64,000 bases of DNA, taken from Tubulanus polymorphus (lineage: Eukaryota; Animalia; Nemertea). The notes beneath the pieces were generated by a model. It ran no database searches, was not told the DNA's origin, and saw nothing but the letters and a program-made list of their open reading frames with translations. The stretch is taken from positions 29,926,299 to 29,990,298 of the forward strand of contig NC_134025.1 of NCBI RefSeq assembly GCF_964204645.1. Direction: 5' to 3'. Both the position numbers and the translations under genes were made by a program. Positions 3,466 through 40,493 of this stretch are shown piece after piece (position 1 is the stretch's first letter; each line of letters begins with the position of its first letter).

Positions 3466-6400
3466 CTATCTTCTGCTCGAAGAAGGTTGTTTATCAGTGG
3501 ATGCCGAGTAACTGAAAATAACAATCACAATAGTTATAGTAACATTATTATAGATTCATCATGCTATGAATGAGTTAGAAGTATTTTCTCACCTGCCCAG
3601 TTGACCTCCAGCCATGCTGAAAAATTTATTGAAGTCCATACGTAGGAGTAACTGAGCTAAATGTGGACTCGATTGATGACTTTGAACACTGGACAATATC
3701 CGGAATAATAAACCAGATTGTACCTGAAAACTCTGTATGAAATAAAACAAATATCTCTCAGTAATGAGTTCACTTCATTCAGGTTGTAACACTACAGATG
3801 CTTGCAGTAGGCCTACCTTAGACAGTTCTTCTAATTTATTTGTTTCGGCTTCCTGACTCGGAGCTTCGCCTTGCATCAGAACGCAGAAATTGTTGCAAAT
3901 CTCTAGAATTTCTTTCAAGTAACGCGACACCTGCAAATACCGGTAAGAGAAAAGAATTTATTACGATTATTTCCAAGGGAAAAATACGAAGCTTCTTCGA
4001 AAAACTTACGGTTTTCATGTGTAGGAATGATTGAACTAATAACGCGGCCAGAAACTGATCGTGAGCCAATCTGATAGCTTCGAAGTCATGAGTAGCTTCG
4101 ATCTTACCGAGTAAAATACTGTACTGAGATTCAATCACATCAACCTACAATCAATTAAACAAACGTTCCTTTTACCAAACAAATTCTACATTCTCGCTAT
4201 AGATATCAAAACGAACGATTATTCGATGAATATAGAACTGATACCTGTAGATAGTACTGCAGATTATCGAGAAGGTAAGCCATATGATATCGTAGCAACC
4301 ATTTCAATCTCGCTTGTTCTTCGTTTAGACTTTGTTTATTTTGCATCTGCTCCGCCCAACAATTCTGCAACCTCAACTGAACGCGTTTCAGCGTCAGCAA
4401 AAACCGGAATAATTTATTATACCTACGAAACGAGAAATAGTTTAATGAGAGGAACGTCATCTGAAAAGGAGTTTTAAAGTGGAATGATTTGAATACAGTA
4501 CTTGTCTAATGTTGAGTTTGTGAAGAGTAAATGTAACGGCCATTCTACAGTACACGTTAGACCTAATGCACTCCATCCGTTGATGACTGAGTCTGTGCGA
4601 GATGGCTCTAAAATAACAAACATTCAAAACTTTTAATTTCTTTAACAGTTAGCTCAGCTCGGAATCCTGTACACTCGATGACATTCCAAACACTACAGGC
4701 CCAGAGGTAGGTTTTGGGGGCGTTCTCATGGATCCAGACCCTGCCTTCGCACTGAGGTGCCGTTTTTGCCAAGCCAGAGATAGCTAAAACCTATAAATTT
4801 CACACTCATCCTGTCAGAATTTGCATCTTTTAGATGTATTTCATCAAAACTATATTAACACCGAGGGTGGGACCCCCACTAGTGGCTTTTGCCATGGCTG
4901 CATTATCCAAGAAATGCCATTTCTTTCCTTCTGTACTCTGGCCTTCCGATTATTTTCCTAGATCCGCCATGAGACCCCGCTGTAACTTCAAATCTAAGAC
5001 AAAACAGTTGAAAAAAAATTGCATTATTTTCATTCTTACTTTTGGAAAGGATTTTATTAGAGTTGATTGTCAGCTGAAAAGCTTGAAACAACTGATCATC
5101 TTCTACTTGTAAAACCATGCGTGCGGCTTGGTGGAACGCGAAATTTACATCTATCAAAATAGACAATGAAATTATACAGTGAAAATCAGGTTTTATAACC
5201 GCTTAAAGCTCAACGATTCATACCCATTCTTACCGTGTTGTGTGTTAGCATTCGGAGGATGATTAAGAAGTTGTCTTTCGTTGCACGTATCGATAAACGC
5301 TAGGAATAATTCACCGCGACCGAGTAAATACATATCCTTCATCACTTGTAAATGTGTATATAAATGATTCTCTTCAAGAACCATGTGCCACAGACGCTAG
5401 AAATATAAACAACACAACATAATCATTGATAAAACACGATATCCCTGTTGTGATGCAAATCCCGCTAAAACAGCAAAATATATTACCGTATTATTACAAT
5501 TATTACTGTATCTATTAAGTCATGTAGCCTACATTTATATTTGAATCTATGTCCTTTAATTATTCAGTCTGTAAAAATGTTCTTCACGTGAATTTTTGTA
5601 TTTTTGTATTCTTATCTTTCCTCTTATAGTCTGTACTTTTTGTACGAAATAAAGACTTATGATTATTATTTATTATAAATTCTGAAAATTTTTCTTTTCT
5701 TTTAGTTTTGACTATATTTTAATAGTCATCTTAAAGGAAACATTGTCGGAATTCATATCATACATAGACAATAATCAACCGATGATTGAGTCAGTAGAGG
5801 GGGAAAAGTGTTCACAGAACAGGGGGTCAGGAGATAAGGGGCCAGAAAAACTGCTGTCAGGAGGACAGGGAACAGAACTGAAAAGTTTTCGTTACCTCTG
5901 CAACACACATTCGTACTTTGCCGACGACTTCTTCGAAATTCTGAAGATCAAATTCTCGATGTTTCGAAAGATTGTAAATTTCTTTGGCAAATTTTTCTTC
6001 ATTTTCTCTCAAAACAGAATCTAAACAGAGAAATCAGTGATAGAGAGAAAATGTTGACTTCATAAAATCCAATTGTTAATTCATTGGTCTTACTGTAATG
6101 CATGAAACTTGTTATTTCATGTTTCTGCTCAAACATTTGAACCGATTCGCCGACAAATAATATTTTCTCTCCGAGACTCAGAGGTATATACGACGGGAAC
6201 ATGTCGCTACGGATACTGAATTCTTCTCTTTTATTCGGAATCGACGGTTCATACATCGAACTTTGCTAAAATGAAAGAAAAAGAAAAACATCACACATGT
6301 TGGAACTGTGAATCAGTAAGATCGCAATAACCATGATGGAGAACAATACATGTCAAATCCCACAATTGTTGAAAAAGTATATCTAAAATACTGGAAATAT

Positions 6401-8152
6401 ATCGGATGATTCCACTGCCACCTGACCAGTTTAATTTTTTCATTTTTGACCGAAGAAAGACTGCAGACTCCACGTCTGCGTGTACAGAGGAAGAAAGAGA
6501 TTGTGCATAGAAAACAATATAATATAGATTTTACATGTAGTATTTCAACAATTGTGGGATTTCACATTTATGTTTGAACTGCGATGATCTTTTAAACAAA
6601 TTCATGCTGACGATACCATAATAATCTCCTGTAACTGTCGCCCGGTGATCCCGCCTATCCCGAGATCGTCGTCATCGGCCATCGCCATAGCAACAGCGGT
6701 CGGAGTTTCGTGTTGGATGAAGAATTCGTGATGTTGATCCAATAGAACGCCTTGTAACATCCATATAGATAACTGTTTATACATTACACCGTGACAATAA
6801 TATAACAACCTGAAATATTAACATATCATCTAACTATGATTGTGGACAGACAGATTCGTTCCATCAGTCAGAATTATAACACTTACTCATTAAGAGCATC
6901 TTTAACACTAGTTAAACCAGTTTGACTGTTCTTGTAAATAACGTCCAAAATTTGACAACCGTGACTCTGTAAAAATTAAATCAGATTTCAATCTCAAACA
7001 TTATGATTCAACGGTCCAATTTTTTAAATCTCTAATCCGGATTAGATCAAAATGTAGGGTTAACTGATCTGGATTGCATCTACTAACCTTCTTTACTGTG
7101 ATTTGTTCTAAAAGCCCAGTTAATGCGACAAATAGATATCTAAACTGAAATCGAAATATTCAAACGTTTAGAATAAGATGAAAATCACAGGACTCTAAAC
7201 CTTAAAACCAAGTTAAGACTTAAAGAATTAAAATTAGTTAATTTCCAAATCTTCGATCATAATTGTGAAGCCGGTTTCACTGTTCTCTCAGTAGGATAGA
7301 AATATTTACCTGTTGTAATTCACTAGATATATACATGACAGTAAGATGTGCATCGGTTAAAATTTTTTGCTCAAGTTCCAATAATTTCTGTTTATAGGGA
7401 GCTAACGTTTGAAGTAACCCATCACAGAATGCTGTCAGATATAAACCAGGTTTCAAACCAGATTTAAAACAATCATCTGAAATTAAGAGAATTAGATCAA
7501 CTAGCCTGGACAAAAACAAGGACATATAACTTTAGAGAGTTGTAGGGTCTACCTACAGTTTAGGTCACCTTTCCACTGTGGTGGTGCTAGTGTAATGGTA
7601 AGGCTGGGTTCAAAACTATTCATTAAAGACACCTTAACCCGGAACTGAAGTTGCTCTGATATGTGATGTGTGGTTTTTGTACCATCAGCTCTGAACTCTT
7701 CCTACCCTAACCCAGCACCCGGTGTGCCCAGGCATCACGCCATGGGTAAGGGCTTACCTTCTTTAAGCGCAGGACAACAGGAATGCTCGCTTATAAAAGA
7801 GTTGAACGCACAATATTGACTGCCGAGCTTCAGAAGTTGATTCAATAAATTTTCTTCCTCTTTCGAAAGAAAAGGCAAATCAGCAACAACCTGAAAATGT
7901 CATGTCTCCATGTCAGTTATACTGACAGTCGTCACAGAGGGTGGCAAAATATAGTCAGATTTGTTTACTTTGATAAGAAAGCCTGAGGAGTGAACTGAGT
8001 CGAGTGAGGTCGAGGACTGGATCGGGAGAGAAAGAATGAGGAAGGAAGGCCTCCTTTTTTATTTAAAACTTACTCACCTTTATCTCAGCCGATTTCATAA
8101 CAAATATATTACCCGGGTACCCGGCTAATGCCATAAATAACTCATGCAACAT
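3466..8152 (-). CDS. TUBGCP4: Gamma-tubulin complex component 4 (multi-exon, complete)
   Basis: ATG at 8152 reads [17 protein letters not shown], matching the GCP4 N-terminus. Internal exons include [88 protein letters not shown] and [15 protein letters not shown]. The last exon ends ...SSRR* with TAG at 3468-3466. About 15 exons with GT-AG boundaries. Confidence 0.95.
6350..6567. mobile_element. MITE-like inverted repeat in a TUBGCP4 intron
   Basis: ATGTCAAATCCCACAATTGTTGAAA (~6350) is the near-perfect reverse complement of TTTCAACAATTGTGGGATTTCACAT (~6543-6567). Confidence 0.6.
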
Positions 8153-9999
8153 CCTGTCAGTGAGTGGTGAGAGGGTTTTCACCGCCTAATAATATTAGTA
8201 AGAAAACCGCCGCAAATTTGTATTTGTTTCATTTCATTGAATTGAATTGAATTGAATATGAGTCATTCTGCAGAATTTCCAGAACCTGCTCTCAGAGGTG
8301 AGCTGGCCTCTCAGGGCAGAAACCTACCCTCAGGGGCCGCGGTCAATAAAAACTAAAAATCCATTCACCAGATTGAGCTGAAACGGTGGAAAGTCAAGAT
8401 AATAGGGAAAATCTAAACAAACAAAAGTTTAATCCGCAATGCCCACGTTTATTATCAACAACTATTCAAGAATATATAAGAATATAGAATCAGAATTGGT
8501 ATTTTACTGAAAGAAATTAAAAAATAAAACTACTTTTCATCAATATAAAGAAATGAAAAAAATAAAAATTTATTTCGGAGAGAAAGTGGCGCGTGGATGA
8601 TAGTTTTACGGTTCTCACCTGCTTAATCCAGCGGCTGACACGAATACGATTTTTGCTAAAGGCCACAGTCACCCGTAAGTACCAGAATAAACAAAATGGC
8701 GGCTTTTTGAATGGCTTAACGTGATTCAGAACGACACAGGTGACATTAGTTAGTTACCTAATCGTTGGTGGTAAGCTTTTATAATCGGATGGGCTTATAC
8801 CAACGTTAGGGATGACAAGGACCAAAACACGGTTGAAAAAAGTAACACTTCAAAAATATACTTTCTATTCACTTCAGTCCACAATTAATGGCTTAATTCA
8901 CAAACTAACACAGGTACCTTTCGAAATAATCCAATTTTATGTATGTTTCGAGTGATTAATCAACATTATTTTGAGAAATTAATTAATTTCTCCACAAATT
9001 TCGCCATTGGCCGCCATTTCTCTGTATTGCACATGTGGCATGATAAGACAAGGGGACCTACAAGGATTTATATAAAACTTCCAAGACGAAACGACAATTT
9101 TTATTTTTGATGGTTTTCCAACTTTTATTTCAAGTCTTCGTGTTTTCCATAATAAATAATAAAATAATAAATTTCTGGTAAAAGAAAAATGTGAATAAGT
9201 GTTGATTTTTTAATTTTTTTAAATTTCGTCGTTTCGCTTTGTTAGTTTGTGCTGTTGTCCTGGCCTCAGTCCACAGGTGCCAGCACCTCCAGTAATTTTC
9301 AAAATGGCAGCTGTTGACTGGACGGAAATTTACTCTCACTTTACGGCCGATTTGCACATGGATTAAGATCGTCAGGTGAGGTGTTATAGGTATCAGACAA
9401 ACTACGAATCTGTTGTGCGTCGATTACAACAAAAATGAGACAGATATCTTAAGAGACAATGAAATGCCAGGCAAATTACTCGTCAGTCAAATTGGCTGAC
9501 GAAGATTTCATACAAAAATGACCTTCCCATTCCTGACTGTGGTTTGTGAAAATATCCGATCGTGAAACTAAACCACAGACAGGTTACTGACTAAGGTGAC
9601 ATCTAACATCCGCGTTGCTGGCTTGCAGCTAATAACTAGGAAGTAAGTGTAAATATAACTTTATCGAAAGAGGTGACGACATTTAAATCGAACTCCTTAA
9701 AATATGAAACCCCATCAAGTTTACATCCGAAATCCCTCCCTGACCCTGTGTAAGTAAGTAATGAAATTTCTGGCCTATTTGTAGCCTAAATGAAGTGAAG
9801 GCACCGAAACTGACTTACGCTGGGCCACCTGTGAAACTCAAATCAAGCCAAATAGACATTAGTTTATATCGTATGTCTACATACGATATAAGTTTGTTTG
9901 TTTAGTTTGTGCCAGTTTGTTTGTGTCATTCAACTGCTTGACAGTGGTTCCGTCTAGCAGCAGCTGTGGAGTGCGAGTGTCCAATATTCGACTAAAAAG
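8153..9999. promoter_or_regulatory. Divergent intergenic/promoter region between TUBGCP4 and the Macro-TIR gene
   Basis: The ATGs at 8152 (-) and 10000 (+) are head-to-head. YY1-like motifs occur as CAAAATGGCGGC (~8692), GGCCGCCATTT (~9009) and CAAAATGGCAGC (~9300). Part of the region is a dispersed repeat. Confidence 0.5.
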
Positions 10000-12900
10000 A
10001 TGGCTGCAGGATTATATCGAGCATCATCAATTGATTTAGTCACCGATGAAGGACATCATGAGATTCAGTTATTACTTGGTGATATTACATTATTGCCCCC
10101 TGAAGATAAAGTCGATCTTCTTATGATTTCCGCTTTTCCTGGTAATAATAAATACACCGTTAATTGACCGACCCGGGACTGAATTCATCGGTGCTATGAA
10201 ACTATCGTTATATTTCAGGTGATTATTGCGCCACTCCGACGTCTGTGATTGGTGCGTTAAAACGCTCGTTTGGAATCAACGTGCGCGATTTAGCGCGAGA
10301 TAAAGCTGAAGATTTGAGAAGGAATTTCAATTGTTGGTTCTCTCATCCACTTCCAGATGGTTTGCCCTACAAGTAATTACACTTCATAATCAAAAACATT
10401 ATCGTGTTAGCGACAATTGATCAATGACCAACCCTGTATCCCTGTATGATAATGAGAAATCTTTCATTGTTGGTCCTTAATACTGGTTTTATCCACCATC
10501 AATTGTGACAAGTCCCTGTTGTGTTGTCTACTGTATTCTTGATTCCTTCTGATTTGCTTGATTTTAAACATTTTCAGACGACTTTTATGTTTTGAGCAAC
10601 AAGTGCGTGATTTCAGCCACCCGAGTATGTTAATAGGAGATGTTTTTCGATGTATGATTCCAGCATTCAACAATCAACCGAGTTCCGTTATAACTCCTAT
10701 TCTCGCGTCTGGCGATCAGGTGGGTCGATTTATCCACATCATATCAAATTCATTCATATTCTACATTGTATACAACTTGCACGCAAAATTTCATTTCGAT
10801 AGTTTTCATACTAATCTGGGACCCAGTTCCACAGTTATTCTCCCACGTTCACAAAAAAGTTCTCAATTTTTGGTTTAGACACTGTTTAAATACTTATGTT
10901 TTCACTCTTTTGGGACATTGGACTTCTGGACCCAGTTTCAAAAAAGGTTGATTTAATTTCTCCAATCATTAAATCTGCATCTCAATTTCATTCAGGAGTT
11001 AATCATATCTGGGCATTTGTATATCCTTACTCAAAACTGTTTCAGGGTCATGTACGGTATGGGATGTATCTAGTTTGTTGTAATTATTTTCCAGAACTGT
11101 GATATAAATGTGATGTTGACATCGATGGTAGTTGCAGCGTGTAACTGGATCACTGCTGGATTACCTCTCGTTTGTCTCAAGATAGTTGTTTTCACGAGAG
11201 AACAATTCACCTGTGAATCGGATATCAAATCATCTTATCTCAATGGTCTCATCGATGTTTTCAATAAACAGAAATTGAAATGGGAGTCTCGAAAAACTAA
11301 ATGGAAGGTTAGTGCGAAATTTCACTCCAGTTTTACGTAATGACTTGAGAGTCAAAATCAATAATAAAAATATTGATTATTAACCCAAAGCCATGTGTAC
11401 CATTTATTGTGTGAATTGTGGGGATCATCACTTTTTGAAAGTGATAAAATGTCCGGTGTTTGTAGTTACGTTTCACTCGAAAATGTCTTTGGAAAGGTTC
11501 TAAACACATGTGAAATGTGAATGATAAAGAATTGGAAGATTGATGCCAGAAGTTGTCTAAATAAGTTGGATCCAGGCTACAGATACCTACACAATTTAGC
11601 ATACAGTCTCAATGGGTAACATGTTTGTCTTTATTTCACTGACAGGAGGTTTCTATACAGTACGATGTATTCCTGTCCTACAGTCGCGAAGATCAGGATT
11701 ACGTAGAAATGATACGAAAACAATTATTACTTGAAAAACCGGGACTTCGTATCAATACAGAAAAACATGAACTGGACTTAGAACAAGCTTGGCAACAGGA
11801 GATCTATGATACTATGATTGTCTGTCTCAGGTAACTGTCATCGCCTGTCTCGGATATCTATTCTGGTTTACTGTTGAACAGTACTGCCAACCAACCAACC
11901 ATCCCTTATTTCTAGAGACATTCTCTTCTGAATAATGATCTGTTGTTCCTCCTTGATTATGGCAAACTCCATGGAATTGAAAATGAATCGGTGTCCCTTC
12001 AAGTTTTAAGAATTTGGTCCATTGTCTTTCTTATTGGCTTATCTTGTCCCAGTCCCAGGAATTCATGAGTTGCGGGCAGTAAGACCGGCAAGAGACACTT
12101 GGGCTCATCCACTCTGTACAGAGTGACAACCTTCAGGCTGTGGACAACGACATTATGTCTAACCATGTTTCTTTGAAAATAATTCAATCAATAATAAAAA
12201 TAACAGGATATTGATAATGAATATTTTCAGAGTGATAACCATATTGAGCCCGAGTTATTTACAGTGCTCCAGTTGTTTAGATGAATACAATATGGCTTTA
12301 TGCTGTAATCGAGTTGTAGAACGCCATGTTTTAGCTCCTGTTTATCTAAAACAAGTTCAAGTGATGCCGACATACATGCTCGTTACTCAATATATAGATT
12401 TCAGGTATTTTATCCGTTGATGTTGTGTTTATCATTTGTTTTTAGAGTTCTGCCCGTTTTAACGCAGAATTACCTGACATCATTAGAATGTGTCGAAGAG
12501 TATAATATCGCACTGTGTTGTAATCGAGTGTCATCGCGTGATATTTTAGCACCGTTCCTTTTGAAAACGATACCTCAATTACCCGTTTATATGCAACTGA
12601 TTCAATATCTGGACTGTAGGTAAAGTTTTATAGCTGTTATGCACTTTGGGGCCATCCATGAAATACATAGCTCAAAATGACAATTTCTAAACCCCCGCTC
12701 TATAATGCAATTTTAAGCATCACAGTATGTTCAAAGGGAGAAGTGGCTGACTGTTTACCCCTTCACCCCATGTATGCATGCTTGTATTATGAATGGTCCC
12801 TTTCAAAATCTGTTTGTACATAATGATAATGCACAGAAAAATTTCTATACTAAACCTGGGTTAGATTTCTTTTTGTTATTCAAATATATTTCTCAGGATC

Positions 12901-15428
12901 ACTATGACTACCTGATAAAAGAGATATTTCTATTTTCAAACTCGACAGGATTGATGATGGAAGTTTCGATAAGCTGATAACCGGCTGTAGAACGTTTGTG
13001 AAATCCGAGTTGAGCGCAGGAATAAAGCACGCGACCGCCGCACGTAAACAAACGGATTACGACGTTTTCATTTCATATTGTCATAAAAACACGAATAAAG
13101 TCGCGTTGTTTCTGGAAACGCTGCAGAAATTGAAACCAGATTTGAAGATTTTCTTCGACCGAAATGAGCTGAAAACAGGTATTGATCGTTTGCGGTAGAT
13201 TAAGATGATTTCTGTGGAACCGGGTCCTGAAGAGCAGCTCATTGATTGTTTATTATATTCTATAGGAGCTTCGTGGCAGCAGATATTGTACGGTGCTATA
13301 GAATCCAGTGACGTAGTTTTAGTTATGCTCACTCCTGATTACATGAATTCAAGTGTTTGCTGTGAAGAGTACAATCTAGCGCTCGCCTGCCACACGTCAT
13401 CTGTAAGTACCATTTCTCGCCCTCTTCATGCAGAGATATTATTTACTTTCCCCTCGGCATCCGCAACCACAGGTATCATTTAACAACAGACTGATTTTAA
13501 CTCTTGGGTCAAACTCATCTGTGGAACTGTGTCCTGTATTATAGTATTTTGTTTTGTAGGCAGTAGATGTGAATTTAGTTCCCGTATTGATAGAAGATGT
13601 AGATGAGTCATTGCAGCGAGGTTATTCCTACGTTCCTGTCGTGGATGGCCGAAATACGCATCAAATCGCTTCAATAGTCTGTCAGAAAATCATCAATTTC
13701 TTGGACAACGGAGAAATCGATCCGAATATCTTCCAGACTAATAAGGTACTGCAGAATGAGTTTCAGTGCTATCTAACTGTGGATTCTTATACCATCAATA
13801 TGTTGAGGACTTACTGAAATGATGATTTACACTTTATAGGGAATCTAAATGGAAGTAAAATTTGGGACTCAAAGATAGAGCATACAACTTATGGCTTATC
13901 GAGTTGAAATAATATTTTGAATTCTTGAAATATTTTCAGACCAAGCATCATCTCGACTGGCTGATGGCTAAGAATCGTAATTCATATTTCCGAGAAAATT
14001 TTACTCGTAAAGCCGGAAAATTCATTAAAAAACCAGTTGAACGCGAGACGACTGCGGATGTGGAAACGACGCATGAGAATCGGTGTGATATATTCATCAG
14101 CGTTAATGATTCGGACAAGATTTACGCGTCCTGTCTTCGCAAGATTCTTAAGTTTAAATCGGACGAACTGGAGATTCATTTCGATACGGAATCCGAGGCG
14201 AGTCAGTTGTCGAAACTGGAACGAGCGAAAATCATCGTCGCCGTCGTGTCTCCGGCGTATTTCACTTCGAAACGCGAACAACAAGAGTTTCATAGCGCCC
14301 TCTGTAGACATCGCGCTGAAATAGGTAAACAGGTTCTCTATGTGATACAGATGTCGCAGTTGTTGGATAAACCGAGTTACGCTCATCTGATTCCGTGTGA
14401 TATCGCGTGTTATGATTCGATTTGGAAGGATTTGTCGTGGGTTGCCAATCAGAACGGCGTCACTCCATTTACCGAAGCAGCTGATAAAGTGTGGTATCAG
14501 TTTAAATGTGACGAACAGATGAATATGAAGATTTTCACTGCTCTCGACGCGGCCTCAGAGGTTATTATAGAACTACTCACAACTTCGAGGTATGTTTTAA
14601 TGTTTTAGATGCTTTCCTCAAATTCAATGCATTCACTGCCATCATAATAATAGTGCTGCCCCTGTTGCTACTATGAGTTATCAGGAACAGTGTCACTTCT
14701 GTATGCCAGAGTACAAATGACTAACAGCGAATAAAAATCATTAGCAACGGGCAAACTCGATATCTCGGTAGTTGGCAGTAATGGTGTTACACGGTATTTG
14801 AAATTGATATCAGTGTAAATATATTATAGATCAGAAGAGAAGAACATGATTATCAGGAATATTATAGCTATGGACATGAAAGTCGACCCCAAAGAACGAA
14901 TTCCAATCCCCGATGGGGTGAGTAGAGGCAACCTCAAATGCTTGGGTTTCTTTAATAAAGAGACAGTTTGTATCGTTTCATGTGATGTTTATTTCACAGT
15001 TCATAAGAACAATTACGACGAAGACTGAAACTGGTGATGAACATGTTGAGAAAACTGATGTGATGGATTTCAGATCGGAGAAAGTTCATGTTCTTGATTT
15101 TCCTGAAGAGTCCACTGGTGCTACTGAGACCGATGAGTGTACAAACACTGCGCAGCTGAAGGAGCCTACAAACGCTGCACTACTAGAGGAGCCGAAAGAT
15201 GGTGCACAACTGAAGGAGCCTACTGAAACTGCACAACCAAAGGAGTTTGAAGACTCGTCACAACCAGATACATCTACAAATACTGGTGAATCCGAACAGC
15301 TGAAAGATAGTGAATCAAATCAAATAGTCGATGATGCTCGTACTACTAGTGTTAACAATCAAATATCATCTAATGGTACAAATGATGAGGTGAAATATGG
15401 ACGAAGTCGTAGTTGTTCATTGTTATAA
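10000..15428 (+). CDS. Macro-like domain + three TIR (TIR_2-type) domains + acidic repeat linker + C-terminal CaaX; ~909 aa when one of the two alternative exons is used
   Basis: Phase-consistent GT-AG exons: 10000-10141, 10219-10372, 10578-10719, 11095-11307, 11646-11830, [12231-12404 or 12446-12619], 12949-13178, 13266-13402, 13560-13745, 13940-14589, 14830-14917, 15000-15428 (2730 nt total). The N-terminus (IQLLLGDIT..KVDLLMISAFPGDY..TPTSVIGAL...VITPILASGDQ...LKIVVF) fits a Macro-type fold. TIR box-1 motifs are YDVFLSYS, YDVFISYC and CDIFISVN, with alphaC glutamates in CLDEY/CVEEY, CCEEY and QQEF. The protein ends KYGRSRSCSLL*. Confidence 0.85.
12231..12404 (+). CDS. Alternative exon 6A of the Macro-TIR gene (C-terminal half of TIR1)
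   Basis: ttttcag|AGTG...TTCAG|gtattt, 174 nt, phase 2-2. Encodes VITILSPSYLQCSSCLDEYNMALCCNRVVERHVLAPVYLKQVQVMPTYMLVTQYIDFR. Confidence 0.8.
12446..12619 (+). CDS. Alternative exon 6B of the Macro-TIR gene (paralogous C-terminal half of TIR1)
   Basis: ttttttag|AGTT...TGTAG|gtaaag, 174 nt, phase 2-2. Encodes VLPVLTQNYLTSLECVEEYNIALCCNRVSSRDILAPFLLKTIPQLPVYMQLIQYLDCR. Confidence 0.8.
12647..12801. mobile_element. Degenerate MITE (GGGGCCATCCAT...ATGAATGGTCCC termini)
   Basis: Imperfect terminal inverted repeats, similar in style to the outer element at 2108-2514. Confidence 0.45.
15147..15254 (+). repeat. Coding 27-bp (9-aa) tandem repeat x4 in the acidic linker of the Macro-TIR protein
   Basis: Units read TAQLKEPTN / AALLEEPKD / GAQLKEPTE / TAQPKEFED. 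Confidence 0.8.
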
Positions 15429-15464
15429 TACCATCCAACGTACTTACCTATGTATTATTCAGGT

Positions 15465-15656
15465 ATTGACAAGTTACTTAGGTATTTGCTTGGCCGAGTG
15501 AGATTGCCAAATTTAATCAGTCACTCGGCCGAGTAAAGAACTTAACTTTTACTAAGCTGGGCTGAGTGGGTTGTCGAATACAAACTATCACTCGGCCGAG
15601 TAAACAACTTTCTAGTATAATGCTCGGCCGAGCAAATGCCTAAGTAACTTGTCAAT
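15465..15656. mobile_element. MITE with 34-bp TIRs and internal CTCGGCCGAG palindromes, just 3' of the Macro-TIR stop codon
   Basis: ATTGACAAGTTACTTAGGTATTTGCTTGGCCGAG pairs with CTCGGCCGAGCAAATGCCTAAGTAACTTGTCAAT (2 mismatches). Confidence 0.8.
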
Positions 15657-20946: not shown

Positions 20947-23900
20947 TTACACATTGTAAACCCAGTGTCTACCATACCTAGGATCTTGCGATGGTCCAGC
21001 TTGCATCGTTTTACCACGGAGCAGTGCATCTATTCCAGGTGGGGTAGCTTCCGCATCGCAGCTGTTACTTCTTGGAACTTGCCCACTTTGCCATCGCGGG
21101 GGTGTACAGCTAGTAGGTGATCCTCTATAGTCTATATTATACTGTAACAAAATAAACGAGAAAATAATTTAACAGTAGCTCACAGCCGAGAGTGAAGATA
21201 AACTCTCTACAGCGGTCAGACTGATAAACATAAACTCTGGAATTTCAAATTTTTCACATCCTTTTAATTGGCTTATTTCACATTTTCTCACAACAAAATA
21301 CCAGAATTTTTCAGTTTTTGAAATAACGTTTCCAGATTTTCACATCATGCATTGAGTTTCTAGGACTGAGTTCTAGACTGTGAAACTTGAGTAGTGCAAA
21401 GTGATTTACCTTAGTGGCGCAAATAAAGCAAGTTGTGACAACTTTAGCGACAGCATTCATTAGATTTTTGGTTTCCTGTATTGCACTGTCAACTTTATTA
21501 AAAGTAGCTGTTTTACCGAATGTAGGAGACTTCAGTGTGAAGTGTAAATGCTGACAATAAGCCGGAATTTTATCCAAATACGTGATCAATTCAGTTTTCA
21601 GTCCACCAACCGGAACCTAAAGATGAAAAATATAGCTTCAATCAAACATATCATATAAATACTGAACCACAACTGTATAGTCAAATCTATTCTTAAGCAG
21701 TGAATGCGCAGAGATGACTTGGCCTGGGTCAAACTGGTCCGGATCAGACCAGAGTCAAATTTTACTCAAATTTCATAATAGAGCACGTTTACATGTAAAT
21801 CACTCGCGTGATACTGAAATATTATCAAAATGATGCTGTGGCAAGCGAGGAGAGTCACTTCAAGAACCAGTTAGCATTCAAGGGCAATGACTCGTGCTAA
21901 AATTTGGCATGGACCAGGTCCAACGTTTTTGGTCAGACACAGAGACCCAATCGGCACCAGTGTAAACGATTGGTCCGGGTCCAAAACATTCATTTGATGG
22001 CAGCTTTCGTTCTTCAGTTTACTGGTTTTTTCGGGGTGTTGTGATTCTTACCCTTTGACCAAATTCTTTGACTATTTTGAATAATTTATTTCCCTCCTCG
22101 GCGAAATATTCGGCCTGAGTGAATAAATCCTGCGTAGTTCTCAGCGGACCTTCACCTCTAGTGAACAGGTACATCGAGAACGCCATACTCGACATATTCT
22201 TGGCACGTTTTACGATGTCGTTATCCGGCTCTTCCCATTTCTCGGTTTCCGCATCCATTTCTGATGTGATCAATTTCATTTCCAGACCGAGTTTAGCTAT
22301 TTTCGCTTGTTCCTGAAATATTCATCGAAAAATTACTACATTTCTTATCTCAAAAGTGAGCTACCTGTAAGTATTCAATACACTAGCAATGAAGGGATGG
22401 ATAATCCGTGTTTGATTTGAATTAAGGCAACGAGTTTTGCCTTAGAGTGACTCGAGTTGGTTCTAACATTCATACACTTTAGGTTCCACAAATAAAAAAC
22501 ATTTTACGGGATAAGAAATACATCTAATAGCAAAAAATATTTTTATTTTCGGTAAAAAAAATTCAAATAAAAGTCGTATATTAGCAAAAATTATCAATGA
22601 GTTCGAAATAATTCAAACTAAACTTCAATTGGAAACGGAATTCAACCTGCATTTCATCATTTCAACGAGAAGTACATTTATAAATGGTCAACTTAACTGA
22701 CATGAAATTAAAAGGAGATTTGGACGATAATCAAGAAGAAATGAGCAATGAAAGAAACTGATAGATAAATTTTAATATTCATAACCTAATTAACATACCA
22801 TTTACATACAATATAGGAATATCTATAGTAACAGAGAAACAATATACATCAAAATTACCCAATCAACAGTGACTGTATCGTTAAAACTAGCCTGTCAAAA
22901 ACAATCAACTAAAATGCGTCAATAACTATTCATTTCCCGCAATAAAAACTGCAAATACTAGAAAGTTAAACACCGTGAGTTTAGTGTAAATCAGTTGTTT
23001 TTTCTAACTAATGACAGCTACGAACATAAATAATACTCTAAGTCTCAATGAAACGTGTGATTGAAATATTGTAGATAAAAATATAATCTATTTCACCAGT
23101 GACTCCTTCGAAGTTCAACTTAAAACGTTAAATTAAGGAATAGGAAATATTTGAAAAGAACTGAAGATTAATCTAAACAACAACGAATCTGGTTATTTAC
23201 CCATTCAGCTAATGGTCCTTTAGTCTGAAAATCATCATCGATATGTTTCATTAATAGCTAATACACTCAACATGCTGGGCACCGGTATGTCGGGTTAGTA
23301 ATTAGATAATGATCAGTTCAGATGAATAGCTATCAAACTATCGAGGATCCCTTCTCATCTTGTCTTTCCTCTCCCTCTCCACCCTCACTTTCTCTTATTG
23401 AGTCTTACCTCTGAATCGAGATGTCCCGGTCTGATCGATTTCGTAGTCGTACCATGTTTCTATAAAACACAGAACAAACTATTTGAGCGCACACAGTAAC
23501 TGATTAGATGACTTCGAAGTTCTGATAAAACTGAAGAATTGCATGAGCAAAAAGTATGATTCAATTTGAAATATTGAGGAGAATTATAAGAGAGAGTTGT
23601 GTGTGTGTGGAGTGCGCGGATTGAGACAGAAATAGATGATGGGTGATGGATGCAGCCGGGAACACACATCAAACAGCGGGTGAATTTTGGTCGGTTGTTT
23701 TCAGGTGGATTGAACAACATTAGAACTGAGATAAACCGGGGTACCTCTCCATGACGCACGAGCGAGCGCCAGATAAAAACACACACACGACACACACCAT
23801 CCATCACTCATATCTATAAAACTCATCTCCTCACAGAGTCTCGAATAAACCTTCACGTTTCAATAGACAAGTCACTGTCTGTTTTTGAATCGAAGCAAAA

Positions 23901-26900
23901 TCCATGGCCCAGTTTTATATACCTTTTCAGTTGATACCAGTTTCAAAGCCAGGTCAAGGATTAAAAGAAAACTATGAGAGTAGAATGGTGTTTCGACTCA
24001 AATACTACAAGCCATTTTCAGAACTCATAGGATTTGAGTTGAGACTTTTTATTGATTCTGGGTTTTCCTTCAATTCAAACGTATACCTGTTTAATCATAC
24101 CGTTATAGAGCGAGGTCAATAGAGGTCATAGAAAGGTCATAGAGAGGTACGTTTTCATACATACATGTATTATAAACAAAATACTATTACTTACTGTAAT
24201 CTGCACGATTTGTAGTTAAAAATAAAACATAAAATTCACTAATTCCGAAAAGCGATGAACATAAAAAGGGTAGGTTTACTATAGTGAGGATTTAGCCATT
24301 CATGACGGGATAAATCGTGAACTGGTTTCGAGATGAATTTATTCGTTTAATCAACTGAAATGTGACGACGAATGAGAAGTAGAAGAATACTTACGCCCGG
24401 TCTCGGTAAAGACATGTAAATCTGTCGATCATTTTTCCCGGATAGAACGTCGTTGATATCCTTGACTAGAACGGAAAGATCATTGATCTGCGATTCCCAA
24501 CTGTCGCAGAAAACGTCTAAATTCTCTCGGGCTATTTTACTACTGTTGTATCGAGCTAGAGTCTTCCCTGCATAAATCAACTGAAAATACATACATACAA
24601 CATATAGGCTACCATAATAGTAAAACAACATTTGTCAAATCAGTAAACATGAAGATTGGTAGTACTTCAAAGTGGAGCGGCCTGGCCGAGTGGTTAGGGC
24701 GTTCGGCTCTGGGAAGCCAGGTCGTGGGTTCGAATCCCGTACATTGCCGTAGTGTCCTCGGGCAAGACACTTATCCTCATTGCCTCTCTCCACCCGGTAG
24801 TAAATGGATACCTGTGACTCCTGAGCGCTTGTTAGCAGCTCGGTGTTACTTCTCCCCAGGGAGAGATGACTGATACATGTTAGAGTATAAAATTGGCCGG
24901 GGTAATAATACCGAAAATGTAAAGCGCTCTGAGCAGCCTCGCTGGATTTAGCGCTATATAAGACACATATTATTATTATTATTATTATCATTATTCAAAG
25001 GTTTACTTGATTTTGTCCACTAAGTACTGCCAGTTTTCACCTTTTCTAGTTTGACACCAGGTTAACAAGTTCTTTTATTTGTCTGATATAGATGGTCAAG
25101 ATTCTTACCTGGGGACATAATGATTTAATACAGTTTTCAACGTGTTCAGCAGTTATCACTAGTGGGTCAAGGCTACAGATATGTCGTAATAATTTACAAA
25201 CCTGTAATCACAAATTAAACACATATAAGTCATGAGCAGTTAAAGAAACTTAAATAGTTTATGCAGTTCCATGTAGTTCATTTTCGATGTTTTAACTCAA
25301 GATCAAAATCCTAACTGCAGAAGTGGACTAGTTCTATTGGTCTACTAGTTACCAGGCTTGCTGTTTCTATGTATGAGCTCTGCACCTAATTTCACCAACA
25401 ATTCTCTTAATCATTACATTTTTGAACTTACTTCCTGAAGTTGTTCCGAATGTTCTTCAATTTTCACTGATAATTCACAAACTTGTTCGTAATCTCCGTT
25501 TAAACCGGCACTTTTTAAAGCCATCAACAAATCATGATCTTCGCTTGTTTTAAACAGTTCCGACGCTTGATCCATAGCTGTATCTTGTAACTAGAATCAA
25601 ATTCAATAAATCAGTGAAATGTTTCACACTTACTGAGAATGAAAACTTAAGTCTGAAAAGTTTAGTGGCTTACTCTATGCACTACATCCTTATAGTCATC
25701 TATTAGGATAAAGTCAAAACATAGAATAGACCATTAGCTCAATGAATCTTTAAAGACTTTTTTCATTCTCAGTTAATCTCATCCTGGATCAATAATTCAC
25801 CTGTTTTTTCAAAAGTTTCGACAATTCGCAAGTTTTCAGAATGGCTGTTTCTAATTCCTGACTTGGAGACACAGCATCTGACTGATCCTATAGAAAAAAT
25901 GGACAAATTTCATACATCGCAGCTTTACTTGTGTAGTGCATGTAAATAAGGGTTTATACAGATCAGGGAATTGTGAATCGATGATTAGCTGTGACCCTTG
26001 ACCAAAAATCCCCTGATTCAATTTTGAGATATCCCCAGTGGGGGTAGTTTCTTCTGATTGGCACCACCAATCACCAGCAAGAACAACAAGACACCAAACA
26101 TTCAAATTTCCGAATTTTGCAAGAAAAAGAATCAGAATTCCTTGATTTTCATTGCAGTGATAAATAAATCTGGACTTGAGTGATAGTCGCTGATTTCCCC
26201 GATCTGTAAGAACCCTGGTTAATGTATGCATTGTACGTACTAATAATATTCCTATTTTCACTACTAGTGATTGTTCATGTCTGAGTTTCTCACACAATTC
26301 TACAATACGTTCTCGATGCTCGTGAGTTGTATACGCTGAATCGGTAAAATCTTGAGTCGCTTCGATCAGATTTTCTAGCGCTATCGCGAGTTTACTCTGC
26401 GTTGTAGGTCCGACTAACGTTACCCTCGTCATTTCAACCAAATCCTGCGCAAAAACAATCACAATTTATCAATTCATGTTTCTTTTAGATTCCTGGTTTA
26501 TGTTGCCGTACAGTTATTAACTAGTATAAAGGCCGAGTTTGACTATAAAAGGTCAGACATGGCAGTATCTGTGAACTCATGGTGCAGTCAGGAGCTCCAG
26601 CGTTTGAAACTGGTTTTTCTTTATCATCTCCGTCAGTTTCTCAGGATAGGGTAACGGAGGAGGTGCAAAGTAACATAACTGCTAGGGCAGAAAGATGATT
26701 TTACACGTCCGAGCCGGCGCAGTTGCTAAAAGTTTGGTTTTAAGTTCACCTGCGTGAACCACAGTTTTAATTGTCACCAAGTCAGTTATTAATTGGTGAA
26801 CCGTCACCAACAATTGAGCAACTATGAACAAAAGCAGTCTGTGGCTGTGGTGTATTTATTCATCGGTTAATCAATCACTAGTGTTGACTATCACTAGTTC

Positions 26901-29900
26901 ATAATTAATGAATTATTGTAATGAAATCCTCGATCAATGAATATAAACAATAGACTCTTGTTACGTACATCGAACTCCTTCATACACCGATAAGCAGTAG
27001 GTTGAGAATGAGCGAGACCGATTCCTGAATCACCGTTCACAGCTGTAGGTGTCGGCGATGCGTCCGTATTTACCGGACCGGTATCTGATACAATATGCTG
27101 TATCAGATCCATAGCGTATCGCATCTGACTGAATACGCCGTCTCGACTCTTCTTAGCCGTATCACAATCGGGATGTCGTAAACTTGTCTGAAATCAACAA
27201 CGCAATGAGAATAATGAGAAACCAGGACGAAAGTGGAGCGATGTTGAGAGCAGGACCTTGAGAGACAGAGGCCGGTCGCGCAGTCCCGGTCTCATTACAA
27301 AAATGGTCTAAATCAAAATCGTGCCTGATCTAAACCCAGAACTGTGGAACTGAGGAGATCGGTTCCAATAAAACAACTTACTTTACAAGTTGTCAGAAGC
27401 ATCATTGTTCCCTTCTCTAATACAGTTCTCGCCACCCCCATCTGCGATCTTTGTTTGTCACTTTTTAAATCCTGTAATTCGTTAACGAAATATGATCAGT
27501 AACTGAAAGTTTCAATTAGATAACAGCACACACAGTTAGAATGACAAACTTCACTCACATTTTGTCTATCTCCGGTAAGATGAGCCAATTCGACCATCTC
27601 GTTACCAAACTGACTAAATGCCTTCACAAAATCCTGAAATCCTGTTACGGTTTCTATAATTCCTAAACTAACGGCCACCTGAAAATTACAAGATTTAATA
27701 CAGTTTTATGGAAAAAACCACAATTATGAAGTAAAAAGCAAAAGAGGATTTTGAAGGTTTTCAGAGCTATTTTCAAAACAGAGAAAATAAATAGCACTGA
27801 ACATGGTAGTCACTTTCGGCCAATTCACAATCCGCTGAGTTTTCCCTGAATGTTCGTTGTTTTAACACAAAATTCCCTGAGTAAATCCGAGGAATTTCTT
27901 TGCATGAAATGTTACAATTGATTCATTTTTTCATGAATCATATAGGCCCCTATTGATTAAGAAAAGGATGGACAATAACATATCCAAATTCCCTGTATTT
28001 TCCAGGTTTTCTTAGAAAAATTTGTCAAATTCCCCGAGTTAAATTATAAGGAAGCCAGAGTTATAATTAGGATTAATTCTATGAAACGCTAGTTCTAAAT
28101 AGTAAATCATCGGTACCTTATCTTTAGCCGCTAACAGTTGTTTAACTACGACTTTATCAGCGAGTAGAAGCACCTTGGTAATAGCGGATAATAACTGTCT
28201 AGCGGCTCGAACCATCGCCGTTTTCTCCGCGCCTTTCACCTGACCGGTCTCGTCTAGTTTCACGTCTGTTAGTTTCTGTATATTTTCGCCGCTGATTCTC
28301 GCTTCCTTGCACGCGTCGCACATGTCGTTACGTATTTCCACATTCTCCTCGGCGATCGATTCTCCGACCGTTACGAATCGAGATATCGCCAGATTCACCG
28401 CCTGCCCGACCCGAACCAGCGCTTTCAAAGTTTTCTCCGATTTGATCGGTCGATCTCTCGCGTTCACTAAAGTCGTTATCTACGAAGAGAATTATAAAAC
28501 ATGTTTTAGCGAAAACGATTAAAATATATAGAACATTAGCATATAGCATTCACACGCAATAACTCCACCGGAGCTTAAATTTGGCTCTAGCCTGGTCCAA
28601 TGTTCTTGATCACCCAAATTTAATCCATATCAAACCCATAACCACCGATTAGAAACTTTGTCGCGGGCCTAATCTGGCACCGCTGGGCAATTCAGCCCAG
28701 GTCAAAAATGCTCGTGTGATCGAGACAGCCTCGGATTATCATGCGTCCCGGCTGACAAAATACATGCACATGATGACGGGCGACCCTTCAACTGTAGCAG
28801 CTTTCACTCGCTAAATTGGTGCCACAACATCAGAAGCGAGCGAAGACAACTCTAACATATCATTTTCTATAAATACATGTGCTATTAAAGAAGCAGAAAC
28901 TGCTTCATTAGATTTATATCGATTTGACGAGTTATTTTTGTTTTTCCTTTTCTCGAAATAGAACTCAGCGTGAATGTGATTGTCACAGGGGAAGTTTATA
29001 TACCTTCAGGGCGAACGCTGATCCAAATAGATTCATTTCAACGCGGATCAATAATTCAAGCATGTACCGTGTATATATATCAATAATTAACACAAGTGCA
29101 AATATTGGATCAATCGTCGAACACGCTGCGACCAGGGGGGTTGACTTTCAGAGAATACCGAACTGTAACTGGAAGAGAGGGTTCGCAGTTAGAAGAATCT
29201 GTCGAAACTCAAGAGAACACTGTCGCTGTATCTCCGGAGATGGTGTCACATGAATATACATTAATACGGATCTCCGATAAACCTTCTGCTCCGATACCCC
29301 TCACCAGCCGATTGCAAAAATGTCACTAGATCGAGTTCCAATTACATTTAGAATAGGTCGATTTCAAGCGCGTCGACCCGAGCTGGATAAGGTTTGATCG
29401 CGGAACAGGGTGTAGACAGGACGACAACAACTATCATGAACTTTAATGAATCGATTGTGTAAATAGAGAAGATCATTTCCTGTGAGTTGTGAGAGACAGG
29501 AAATAAACAGAGATAGACCTGATACAGGTGTCAATCCAATCAATCAGTCAATATTCACTTTATAGCCAGCCAACCAAATACTGCTTGATCTCAACAAAAA
29601 ACAAGAAAACTTACTCGAAAGATTATCGACACCTTGAAGAAAAATAACACATATATTGCCTAATACTATCGACAATGAATAATATTACAAAACATTAAGG
29701 ACCAATTAAGTTATTTTGAATCTGAATAGGCCTATATCGATAATTTGAATCTAGTTGACCGGTACCGATCTAACAACGCGAGCCCCAATATTGATGACAT
29801 AGTGCACATCCACTCAAAATTCATTATCAAAACGACAGCAATCTATCTAACAGAAAATGAGGCATGAAATATATCTAATTGCAGAATGAAAACCAAAATT

Positions 29901-35641: not shown

Positions 35642-36034
35642 TCAATTGTTATTATCACTACTCGGACTGCTAGAGATATTTCCGGGCGGGTGTTCTTCAA
35701 AACCTTCACTCTCCGTAATCAAAGCCCGTTCCAAAATAACGCGTCCCTCTTTGTAACGTTGATTTTCTTCGGTAGCGAACTCGTAAATCCAACCGAGTTT
35801 CGCGTCGCAACTTTTACACAACACGTCGCGCACCATGTGACGTCCGGTGAGCATTACGCGATCCTGAACCTCGCTGTAGTTTAAATTAACGACTCTATTG
35901 AACAGAAACGCTCGTCCGGTCGCCCCAGTGAATCGTGTTGAGATCAATTCCGACCGGTTCGTCAACGGAGTGTCACAACTAGCGCACGAGAATAATCGCG
36001 ATCCTCCGATATGGTTCAAGAATATTCGACCCAT
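35642..36034 (-). CDS. YPEL5: Protein yippee-like 5 (130 aa, CDS in a single exon)
   Basis: [105 protein letters not shown] has two CxxC motifs. A 5' UTR intron acceptor (ttttcag) lies 11 nt upstream of the ATG. Confidence 0.97.
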
Positions 36035-36469
36035 ATTTGGTGGTGCTGAAAAGGAGGATAACATAGATGGAGAAAATTAAAGAAAAGTTGAAGAATTTTG
36101 ATTGACAGAGAATCCAGGATAGGTAAATTTAGATGTGTTCAGTTGTGTTACCTTATAAAAGTTGGCAACAGCAGCACCAAACAGAATTTCACAAAATAAC
36201 CACTGACAGCCAATCCTATACTTGTCTTCAATATTCTGCGGAGTAATGTGGAAATAAAATCAGTTGAATTTAGCTTGATTGACCTCTTTCATTCTCGTCA
36301 AAATCAAAACATTGCAGATAAACGCATCATTCACATTAATGAAACAGTTTTATGAAATGAAGAGTAATTCTACATTTAGATATATAAGATATCGATGTTT
36401 TAAAATAGAGATATCGGTTCTAGAATGTTAAGTTTGATCGCAATAAGAATTTATCCGAGGATTGTTTAC

Positions 36470-36905
36470 TCACAAATGACGTTTGTTGATCAAAACATTG
36501 ATGACGTCACACGTGCACGTGTTCCTGTCAAAGTTCATCAGTCACTGCGCATGCGTGTATTTTACCTGACACGAAGAATCATCTCACAAGGTGGCGCTAG
36601 TATCGCAATATTGCGCTTTATAAAAATGCTGTAAATTCTAATGTTGTTTCACATCTAAAGTTAATATTTCTAGTTCTTTTATTTTAGTTTGTATAATTTT
36701 GTGTTAGTTCTTTTAATCATCACACGACGGCGCTAGTATCGGTAGTTGTAGTTCCGCCAATGTTCGCACAGTGGCGCTAGTATCGCGGGGCCGAGTTCCG
36801 GTTTCTGACGAAGAGTTTGATCGCCGGATTAGCAATTTTCTCGTCGCTTAAAAATCGTTGAGAACTGACGTCAAACAGTGAAATAAACGTTTAAACGTCG
36901 GAACA
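36470..36905. promoter_or_regulatory. Bidirectional YPEL5/EHD promoter
   Basis: CRE TGACGTCA at ~36502 and ~36866, E-boxes CACGTG at ~36510-36521, NRF1-like TGCGCATGCG at ~36546, three GGCGCTAGTATCG motifs (36593, 36729, 36773) and an ETS-like TTCCGG at ~36796. Confidence 0.7.
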
Positions 36906-39900: not shown

Positions 39901-40493
39901 ATTGTTCATTTTATATACATTTAACAGGAGATTTCCCGGAGAAGAAGAAAATGCAGGAACTATTGGAACATCATGACTTCACGAAGTTCCACGCGTTGAA
40001 ACCGAAGCTGATCGAAGCCGTCGATAAGATGTTGTGCGACGATATTTCACGTTTGATGGCGATGATTCCGCAAGAAGAACGAGCGAGTATCGACATCGTG
40101 AATACGGTTAAAGGGGGCGCTTTCGAAAACTACGATGAGACACCGTTCGGAATCGGTAATCTCGAGGGAATCAACGCCGGTCAGGGCGAGAGCGAATGGA
40201 TCTGCGCGCGGAAACGAGATAAAACGGATCGCGTGTTCGACACGTTGGATCCGATCGACGGCAAGATCAGCGGCGCGAAGGCCAAACGAGAAATGATGAA
40301 TTCGAGATTACCGAACAATACATTGGCTCGTATCTGGAAGCTATCCGATATAGACCGGGATGGAATGTTAGACGCCGATGAATGGGCGTTGGCTAGTCAT
40401 CTTATCGAAATGAAATTAAACGACCAAATAGAAATACCTAGCGTGTTACCGCAACATTTAATACCACCATCCAAACGAGAATTCCTCGATTAA
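36906..40493 (+). CDS. EHD1: EH domain-containing ATPase (EHD1/EHD3/RME-1/Past1 family), 3 exons, 536 aa
   Basis: Exons 36906-37814, 39515-39650 and 39928-40493 (1611 nt, phases consistent). Motifs include the P-loop GQYSTGKT, PEPTTD, DTPGILSG, NKAD and KPES-type KPF loop region (KKQFKPL), plus a C-terminal EH domain (IWKLSDIDRDGMLDADEWALA..LIPPSKR). Confidence 0.96.
37900..38022 (+). repeat. Dispersed repeat shared with 49437-49650 (member of an abundant family with CCCAGTTCCACAG / CTGTGGAACTGGG ends)
   Basis: TCTTAAAATAGGGA.TTG.CCCT...TTTGGTGTCC.TTACAA...CCACACCTGCCGGGAA.GAAACA.GGGG occurs at both sites. The terminal motif also occurs at ~598-615, ~10818, ~13212, ~18495, ~27340 and ~46525. 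Confidence 0.75.

Follow-up and report, generated by a model that had tools for sequence, protein, structure and literature searches.

Described systems and the Tubulanus gene

TIR-STING, TIR-SAVED, PycTIR, and SARM1 are ligand-gated TIR enzymes cleaving nicotinamide adenine dinucleotide (NAD+): a nucleotide-binding module is joined to a Glu-bearing TIR domain, and the TIR is the sole output. In type II Thoeris, a TIR protein (ThsB) and a transmembrane Macro protein (ThsA) form separate chains. Bacterial DrHyd/TPR-S (ASK1-like) conflict operons were reportedly described by Burroughs and Aravind, and the ecTIR-DC families of invertebrates reportedly by Gerdol et al. in 2017. Here, we describe a gene of the nemertean Tubulanus polymorphus at 10000 to 15428 on the forward strand of a 64,000-nucleotide stretch of contig NC_134025.1 (assembly GCF_964204645.1, positions 29,926,299 to 29,990,298)—hereafter the window, in which all positions are counted. 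Its 909-residue product carries an N-terminal Macro-fold domain, three tandem TIR domains, an acidic linker, and a CaaX box. The gene is real, expressed, and conserved, and belongs to an apparently uncharacterized family of the nucleotide-sensor-plus-TIR type that is not a member of Thoeris.

As in the ligand-gated TIR NADases, a candidate nucleotide-binding module accompanies a Glu-bearing TIR as sole output. Unlike those proteins, the Tubulanus protein has a Macro sensor for which Pfam holds no model, three TIRs, and a CaaX tail, and it lacks STING, SAVED, SAM, and ARM domains. With type II Thoeris it has in common a Macro domain, a TIR with Glu at the catalytic position, and a predicted membrane association, but it is one chain without transmembrane helices, and its N-terminus consists of Macro β-strands. 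The ecTIR-DC proteins are likewise invertebrate, cytosolic, and multi-TIR—the Trichoplax family-8 protein has 1,082 residues and two annotated TIRs—whereas no Macro domain, CaaX box, or bacterial link appears in the sections of the source drawn on here (PMC6321704). A literature search found no description of a Macro–TIR fusion family, a prior listing not being excluded; the word macro is not mentioned in the accessible text of 10.64898/2026.04.20.719644, whose supplements could list family members.

Because the chain pairs a candidate nucleotide reader with a single conserved enzyme site and lacks any other output, a ligand-gated TIR NADase at the membrane is the likeliest reading. We favor it with slightly less than even confidence: NAD+ cleavage by the second TIR (TIR2) would depend on an ADP-ribose-type ligand bound to the Macro domain, making the protein a membrane-tethered switch with a predicted role in innate immunity.

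Gene structure and transcript

The coding sequence is split into 12 exons (10000–10141, 10219–10372, 10578–10719, 11095–11307, 11646–11830, 12446–12619, 12949–13178, 13266–13402, 13560–13745, 13940–14589, 14830–14917, and 15000–15428), all with GT..AG ends, which sum to 2730 nt, or 909 codons plus stop, free of internal stops. The translation is identical in all 909 residues to XP_074651161.1 and XP_074651171.1, labeled by NCBI as uncharacterized protein LOC141905942 of Tubulanus polymorphus. A single 2823-nt contig of sequencing run X2—a run of unrecorded type, which we take as spliced transcript from its intron joints—spans 9946 to 15467 and omits exactly the 11 predicted introns. As this one contig joins all of them, the 5′ exons and the TIR exons form one transcript. 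The 12-exon, 909-codon frame of the initial annotation hence stands, and separate transcripts are not supported.

A gene-fusion artifact and a pseudogene were both rejected, as was an exon 7 acceptor at 12897, which gives stops; the acceptor at 12949 matches the contig joint. The coding part of the X2 contig shows 23 allele differences (two within one codon, counted separately), of which 15 are silent, 8 change a residue, and none creates a stop. Inside the folded part, they are silent for the most part.

The N-terminal Macro domain

Residues ~3 to 211 are encoded by exons 1 to 4 (10000 to 11307, + strand). In an AlphaFold2 model of the entire protein—built from a 133-row alignment, with a mean predicted local distance difference test (pLDDT) score of 81—this region matches macroH2A1.1 in Foldseek with an E-value of 6.8e-6 and a template modeling (TM) score by target of 0.76. 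VIA aligns ~180 of its residues to Macro domains at Z 16.4 to 16.5 and a root mean square deviation of 2.8 to 3.0, and Atlas rows named Macro match it at TM 0.69 to 0.73; the Atlas feature search scored 0.84, below its threshold. For a domain-only search against 48,161 chains, a 204-residue Porites homolog (51% identical) was folded alone (pLDDT 93). Its top matches are PARP14, the second macro domain of PARP9, macroH2A, OiMacroD, and Af1521 (Z 16.0–16.7), with a Foldseek E-value of 5.8e-10. The Macro fold suspected in the initial annotation is borne out by these searches. The Thoeris protein EcThsA (8v6q), however, comes only at rank 22, with Z 12.3 vs 16.0 to 16.7 for six other Macro domains, and a Thoeris-type Macro domain is thus not supported.

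Pfam gives no match to residues 1 to 215 at E ≤ 5; with the family's own Macro profile, Af1521 scores no better than E 0.019, and Pfam, NCBIfam, and PADLOC have no curated model. The domain is a divergent Macro subfamily. It has the fold, the GD[IL] adenine motif, and the P-x-x-x-x-G loop in common with the readers macroH2A1.1 and PARP9/PARP14 macro 2, at only 12 to 18% identity. Within the Macro–TIR family, GD[IL] and P..G hardly vary: from bacteria to animals, the two ends of the ADP-ribose cleft are kept as G27 (123/125), D28 (121/125), P139 (122/130), and G144 (122/128), as are S44 (127/129) and Y50 (123/128).

Classic ADP-ribose binders and MacroD-type hydrolases are marked by a Gly-rich loop (with Asp in the hydrolases), an Asn, and a loop-2 aromatic. 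In the Macro–TIR family, all three are replaced, as far as positions can be matched by eye and through the profile that reaches Af1521: PTS/GS stands in place of the Gly-rich loop, and GDQ in loop 2. Conserved SAF..Y and CW.S..LCFE segments also set the family apart from the macroH2A-like readers. By the same motifs, the domain appears to lack the residues of a MacroD-type hydrolase.

The three TIR domains

Pfam TIR_2 recognizes three stretches (E 7.9e-44) and Pfam nothing else in the 909 residues at E ≤ 5. All lie on the + strand: TIR1 covers residues ~222 to 338 (exons 5 and 6b, 11646 to 12619; Glu297 at 12498–12500), TIR2 residues ~373 to 510 (exons 7 to 9, 12949 to 13745; Glu448 at 13367–13369), and the divergent TIR3 residues ~570 to 690 (exon 10, 13940 to 14589; Glu637 at 14285–14287). 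E297, E448, and E637 are the αC Glu, three residues past the Cys position, so that the count of three tandem, Glu-bearing TIRs made earlier for this protein is confirmed.

Across the family, this pattern does not hold. Counts were taken over 50 animal rows and 83 shorter two-domain rows of the family alignment. TIR1 bears Glu in only 5 of 47 animal rows—two from Tubulanus, one apparently misaligned—and Gln in 34. TIR2 has kept it in 44 of 45, and the lone TIR of the two-domain homologs in 82 of 83, the exception being a Gln in Hydra. For TIR3, Glu is present in 34 of 41 animal rows, and the Cys preceding it is lost. In all three full-length protist-type homologs, TIR1 and TIR3 are devoid of Glu, which is found there in TIR2 only. 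Three signal-producing TIRs, as first proposed, are therefore not supported. Against bacterial-type TIRs, the profiles of TIR1, TIR2, and TIR3 score 88, 91, and 48 median bits; since the first two score them equally, TIR1 and TIR2 are likely products of a duplication.

These counts also bear on a non-enzymatic adaptor, whose Macro domain would read ADP-ribosylated proteins—such as antiviral marks of the PARP type—and whose three TIRs would recruit other TIR proteins at membranes. Reader-type macroH2A, PARP9, and PARP14 domains are indeed the closest structures, TIR1 is mostly Glu-less, a Hydra homolog consists only of Macro and a Gln-bearing TIR, and tandem TIRs suit scaffolding, a role hypothesized for ecTIR-DC proteins in the cited part of PMC6321704. 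A pure scaffold has no need of a catalytic Glu, though, and the Glu of TIR2 and its counterparts is kept in animals, protist-type homologs, and two-domain proteins. We consider the adaptor unlikely.

A second version of exon 6

The initial annotation gave CLDEY or CVEEY as the Glu motif of TIR1. Both are present: they belong to two tandem copies of exon 6, only the second of which is seen spliced. Exon 6a (12231 to 12404, + strand) is an unannotated, same-phase copy, 41 nt upstream of exon 6b (12446–12619). It is in frame, has AG/GT ends, and encodes an alternative C-terminal half of TIR1, whose Glu lies at 12283–12285. The copies are identical in 27 of 57 residues, with proportions of synonymous and nonsynonymous differences (pS, pN) of 0.93 and 0.32. 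A family profile excluding Tubulanus scores them at 89.0 (6a) and 91.4 bits (6b), and they keep 16 and 17 of 20 conserved positions, respectively. The divergence pattern suggests that 6a is likely a maintained exon, mutually exclusive with 6b and bearing its own Glu.

Spliced 6a was not seen in the X2 or X3 contigs—contigs drop rare forms, and this is no evidence of silence—and the copy is also absent from the protein cluster of XP_074651161.1, which has a single member. Inclusion of both exons would remain in frame (967 residues) but requires a 41-nt intron; it was not seen and was rejected. By local tblastn identity, 6a is apparently nearer than 6b to the Lineus and Owenia orthologs.

The C-terminal tail

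TIR3 is followed by an acidic, Thr/Glu/Ser-rich linker (15000 to 15413, + strand), predicted to be disordered (pLDDT < 50 for residues 777–902), and by a CaaX box, CSLL plus stop (15414 to 15428, + strand), a predicted prenylation site preceded by basic residues. Among animal homologs of at least 700 residues, 20 of 36 end in Cxxx, mostly with a final Leu or Ile, compared with 1 of 111 bacteria-like proteins (binomial p 5e-23, uncorrected for kinship). The acidic linker and CSLL end reported previously are thus borne out, and the tail is conserved and likely a lipid anchor. Cnidarian and protist-type sequences are also without it.

There is no transmembrane segment: the top 19-residue hydropathy window scores 1.76 and lies within the Macro core. 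Neither were LRR or Ig domains with a transmembrane segment, a death domain, or an ARM–SAM arrangement found by Pfam, model, or hydropathy. The architecture is hence, as initially suggested, not that of TLR, IL-1R, MyD88, or SARM1.

Distribution in eukaryotes

Named animal homologs come from nemerteans, an annelid, a brachiopod, molluscs, a flatworm, echinoderms, hemichordates, and cnidarians; none from an arthropod, nematode, or chordate is among them in this nonexhaustive search. The layout is not restricted to animals, in disagreement with the scope first assumed. Mucochytrium—which we take to be a thraustochytrid—and two further proteins carry Macro and three TIRs in conserved order with Glu only in TIR2, and a Pavlovales protein carries Macro, TIR1, and a cut-off TIR2.

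An unrooted tree built on 184 Macro domains groups the 49 animal sequences in a single clade (0.909) and likewise unites all eukaryote sequences (0.987); IQ-TREE on 72 of them gives approximate likelihood ratio test (aLRT) values of 91.5 and 88.3. The animal clade broadly tracks the animal phyla, with few copies per species. A recent transfer into nemerteans was rejected, and, on this ground, the patchy, recent transfer into invertebrates considered in the initial annotation is not supported. The proposed kinship to bacterial Macro–TIR proteins is borne out. The eukaryote clade sits among them, and two-domain matches reach E 1e-58. We infer a bacterial donor because bacterial diversity is greater; the unrooted tree does not distinguish an ancient origin from transfer between eukaryotes.

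This mode of descent can be taken to argue for a domesticated NAD+/ADP-ribose signaling enzyme with a non-immune job, e.g., in calcium signaling or neurite degeneration—SARM1 is a precedent for a non-immune TIR signaling enzyme. Few copies per species that broadly track phyla fit such a role, as do the mostly silent allele differences in the folded part. The paralog pairs found in several species speak against it, and so do bacterial kin that are patchy and, in one family, tied to conflict-type genes. Of the readings weighed here, we regard this one as the least probable.

The Tubulanus paralog LOC141907613, outside the window, has Glu in all three TIRs, differs in loop 2 of its Macro domain, and ends without a CaaX box. 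Short forms of Hydra vulgaris (P0167, P0196) consist of Macro and only the Gln-bearing TIR or part of one.

Bacterial relatives and their context

Bacterial counterparts are two-domain Macro–TIR proteins of ~340 residues, confirmed in genomes of several phyla. Among 46 proteins scanned, fusions to HSP70, kinase, NUDIX, OGFr_N, CHAT, GT4, and type VI secretion sheath domains occur. Their spread is patchy, with 11 of 301 genomes in one family and 5 of 301 in a cyanobacterial class.

After dropping five near-duplicates and 11 short loci, 44 bacterial loci were examined. A patatin or TPR-S/ASK1-like gene lies at most three genes away in 11 of them, corresponding to ~5 independent contexts, each from Chitinophagaceae or resembling that family. 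The TPR-S proteins start with a motif that we take to be of DrHyd type. Within one bacterial family, TPR-S co-occurs with 11 of 11 Macro-bearing genomes vs 20 of 290 others (Fisher p 2e-12, uncorrected for kinship). Bacteroidota Macro–TIR genes thus resemble DrHyd/TPR-S conflict operons in adjoining TPR-S/MAP3K_TRAF_bd, patatin, TIR, and GT4 genes, whereas the animal gene has no such neighbors within the window. One recurring Bacteroidota operon (L010:3397-12882, L055, L056, L014) combines GT4, patatin, a DrHyd-type/TPR-S protein, Macro–TIR, another TIR protein, and Band 7, and is a candidate defense system.

Thoeris effectors did not turn up in this context: PADLOC (E ≤ 1e-5) found no ThsA among the 42 neighbors scanned, a subset of all neighbors, and bacterial homologs beside Thoeris effectors, as initially expected, are not supported. 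The ThsA model does not match the Tubulanus protein, and its TIRs match ThsB models weakly (E 2.9e-8 at best; ThcB4 43.7 bits at a cut-off of 220). These results weigh on a single-chain version of type II Thoeris, in which the TIRs would make an ADP-ribose (ADPR)-derived signal that the fused Macro domain captures or erases as a built-in brake. Its appeal lies in Macro and TIR being combined with a likely membrane anchor in a single chain, in an anatomy compatible with product feedback, and in ThsA being a true structural relative that binds ADPR made by ThsB, as stated in the part of PMC11204291 used here. The ranking of ThsA and the neighborhoods count against it, as do the missing transmembrane effector—grounds on which Thoeris membership was rejected—the MacroD hydrolase residues, which are not conserved, and the conservation of one TIR only as catalytic. 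We hold this version to be quite improbable.

Some further relatives were noted. Macro–TIR is joined to the type VI secretion sheath domains VipA and VipB in P0123, P0129, and P0155, and some homologs carry FHA or kinase domains. In Atlas, one bacterial cluster joins the Macro–TIR-type fold to DUF4145, and a separate one combines canonical Pfam Macro with TIR. Among viral contigs, 74 pattern matches yielded no confirmed relative. A plasmid search gave seven partial, unannotated matches of 30 to 36% identity on Ralstonia megaplasmids, with a distant Macro match at L061:4001-4498.

Possible mechanism

For ligand-gated NAD+ cleavage at the membrane—the reading that we favor—the following sequence of events can be envisaged. 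The prenylated CaaX tail and the long disordered linker would hang the folded core under the membrane. The Macro domain might read ADP-ribose or one of its derivatives without acting as an enzyme. Ligand binding might then bring TIR2 domains together to cleave NAD+, whether to deplete it or to produce signals of the ADPR or cyclic ADPR (cADPR) type; such signals could in turn act on the Macro domain. TIR1, presumably without catalytic activity in most animals, might serve as scaffold or brake, as might TIR3; in Tubulanus, both alternative exons of TIR1 supply a Glu. The direction would thus be sensor-to-TIR, as in TIR-STING, TIR-SAVED, and SARM1, and not TIR-to-pore as in type II Thoeris.

In favor of this reading count the Macro fold, the retained ends of the ADP-ribose cleft, the Glu kept in TIR2 and in its two-domain and protist-type counterparts, the lack of an output domain besides TIR, and the patchy, variously fused bacterial kin with their patatin or TPR-S neighbors and TPR-S co-occurrence. 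In addition, many non-TLR animal TIRs with αC Glu produce cADPR in Escherichia coli (10.64898/2026.04.20.719644). Several observations weigh against it. The Macro domain has neither the Gly-rich loop nor the Asn and loop-2 aromatic that mark classic binders, and its ligand may hence differ from ADP-ribose or be absent. In catalytic TIR NADases, a Trp usually precedes Cys-x-x-Glu, a common but not defining feature; Val replaces it in 38 of 45 TIR2 rows, and the bacterial set lacks it too. Of the 36 long animal homologs, 16 have no CaaX box, and the Tubulanus paralog has none either. The TPR-S association is uncorrected for phylogeny, with its 11 loci reducing to ~5 contexts in one bacterial group; 33 of the 44 loci have no patatin/TPR-S neighbor, and the cyanobacterial replicate is weak (2/5 vs 23/296, p 0.057). 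A gene inherited vertically in few copies would suit a non-immune role as well. Furthermore, Glu is not sufficient as proof of TIR activity: TLR2, IL-1R9, and IL-1R10 have it yet were inactive (10.64898/2026.04.20.719644), and ~43% of Arabidopsis TIRs carried the Glu but triggered no cell death, according to a passage of PMC12452931.

A more far-reaching version of ligand-gated NAD+ cleavage appears doubtful to us: an ancient eukaryotic immune module derived from bacterial DrHyd/TPR-S systems, in which a new Macro subfamily would read an ADP-ribose-derived second messenger and fire a membrane-anchored TIR NADase in animals as far apart as cnidarians and hemichordates; a dead TIR would be the brake, and mutually exclusive exons would swap the catalytic helix of TIR1 in Tubulanus. 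The family itself would supply a type of Macro domain that Pfam, NCBIfam, and PADLOC lack, and a new example of a bacterial conflict module retained by invertebrates and certain protists. Animal TIRs making cADPR-type molecules are now widely reported. What receives such signals in animals becomes directly testable with a family that unites a candidate nucleotide receptor and a TIR with conserved Glu on a single chain and has a 340-residue bacterial counterpart amenable to assays in E. coli.

Genomic neighborhood

Judged from the translations of neighboring open reading frames, the surroundings of the gene are ordinary and without an immune cluster. These reading frames presumably encode a gamma-tubulin complex subunit (3836–8200), alpha-catulin (22019–28479), yippee (35642–36076), an EH-domain protein (36882–40493), and a dynein heavy chain (44536–63554). 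Upstream of the gene, at ~9000 to 9600, lies a very high-copy repeat with a depth of 20,000 to 80,000 vs ~30 in run X1. Just past the stop codon, at 15465 to 15656, an element of ~190 nt resembles a miniature inverted-repeat transposable element, with 34-nt terminal inverted repeats that are 94% complementary and with raised depth.

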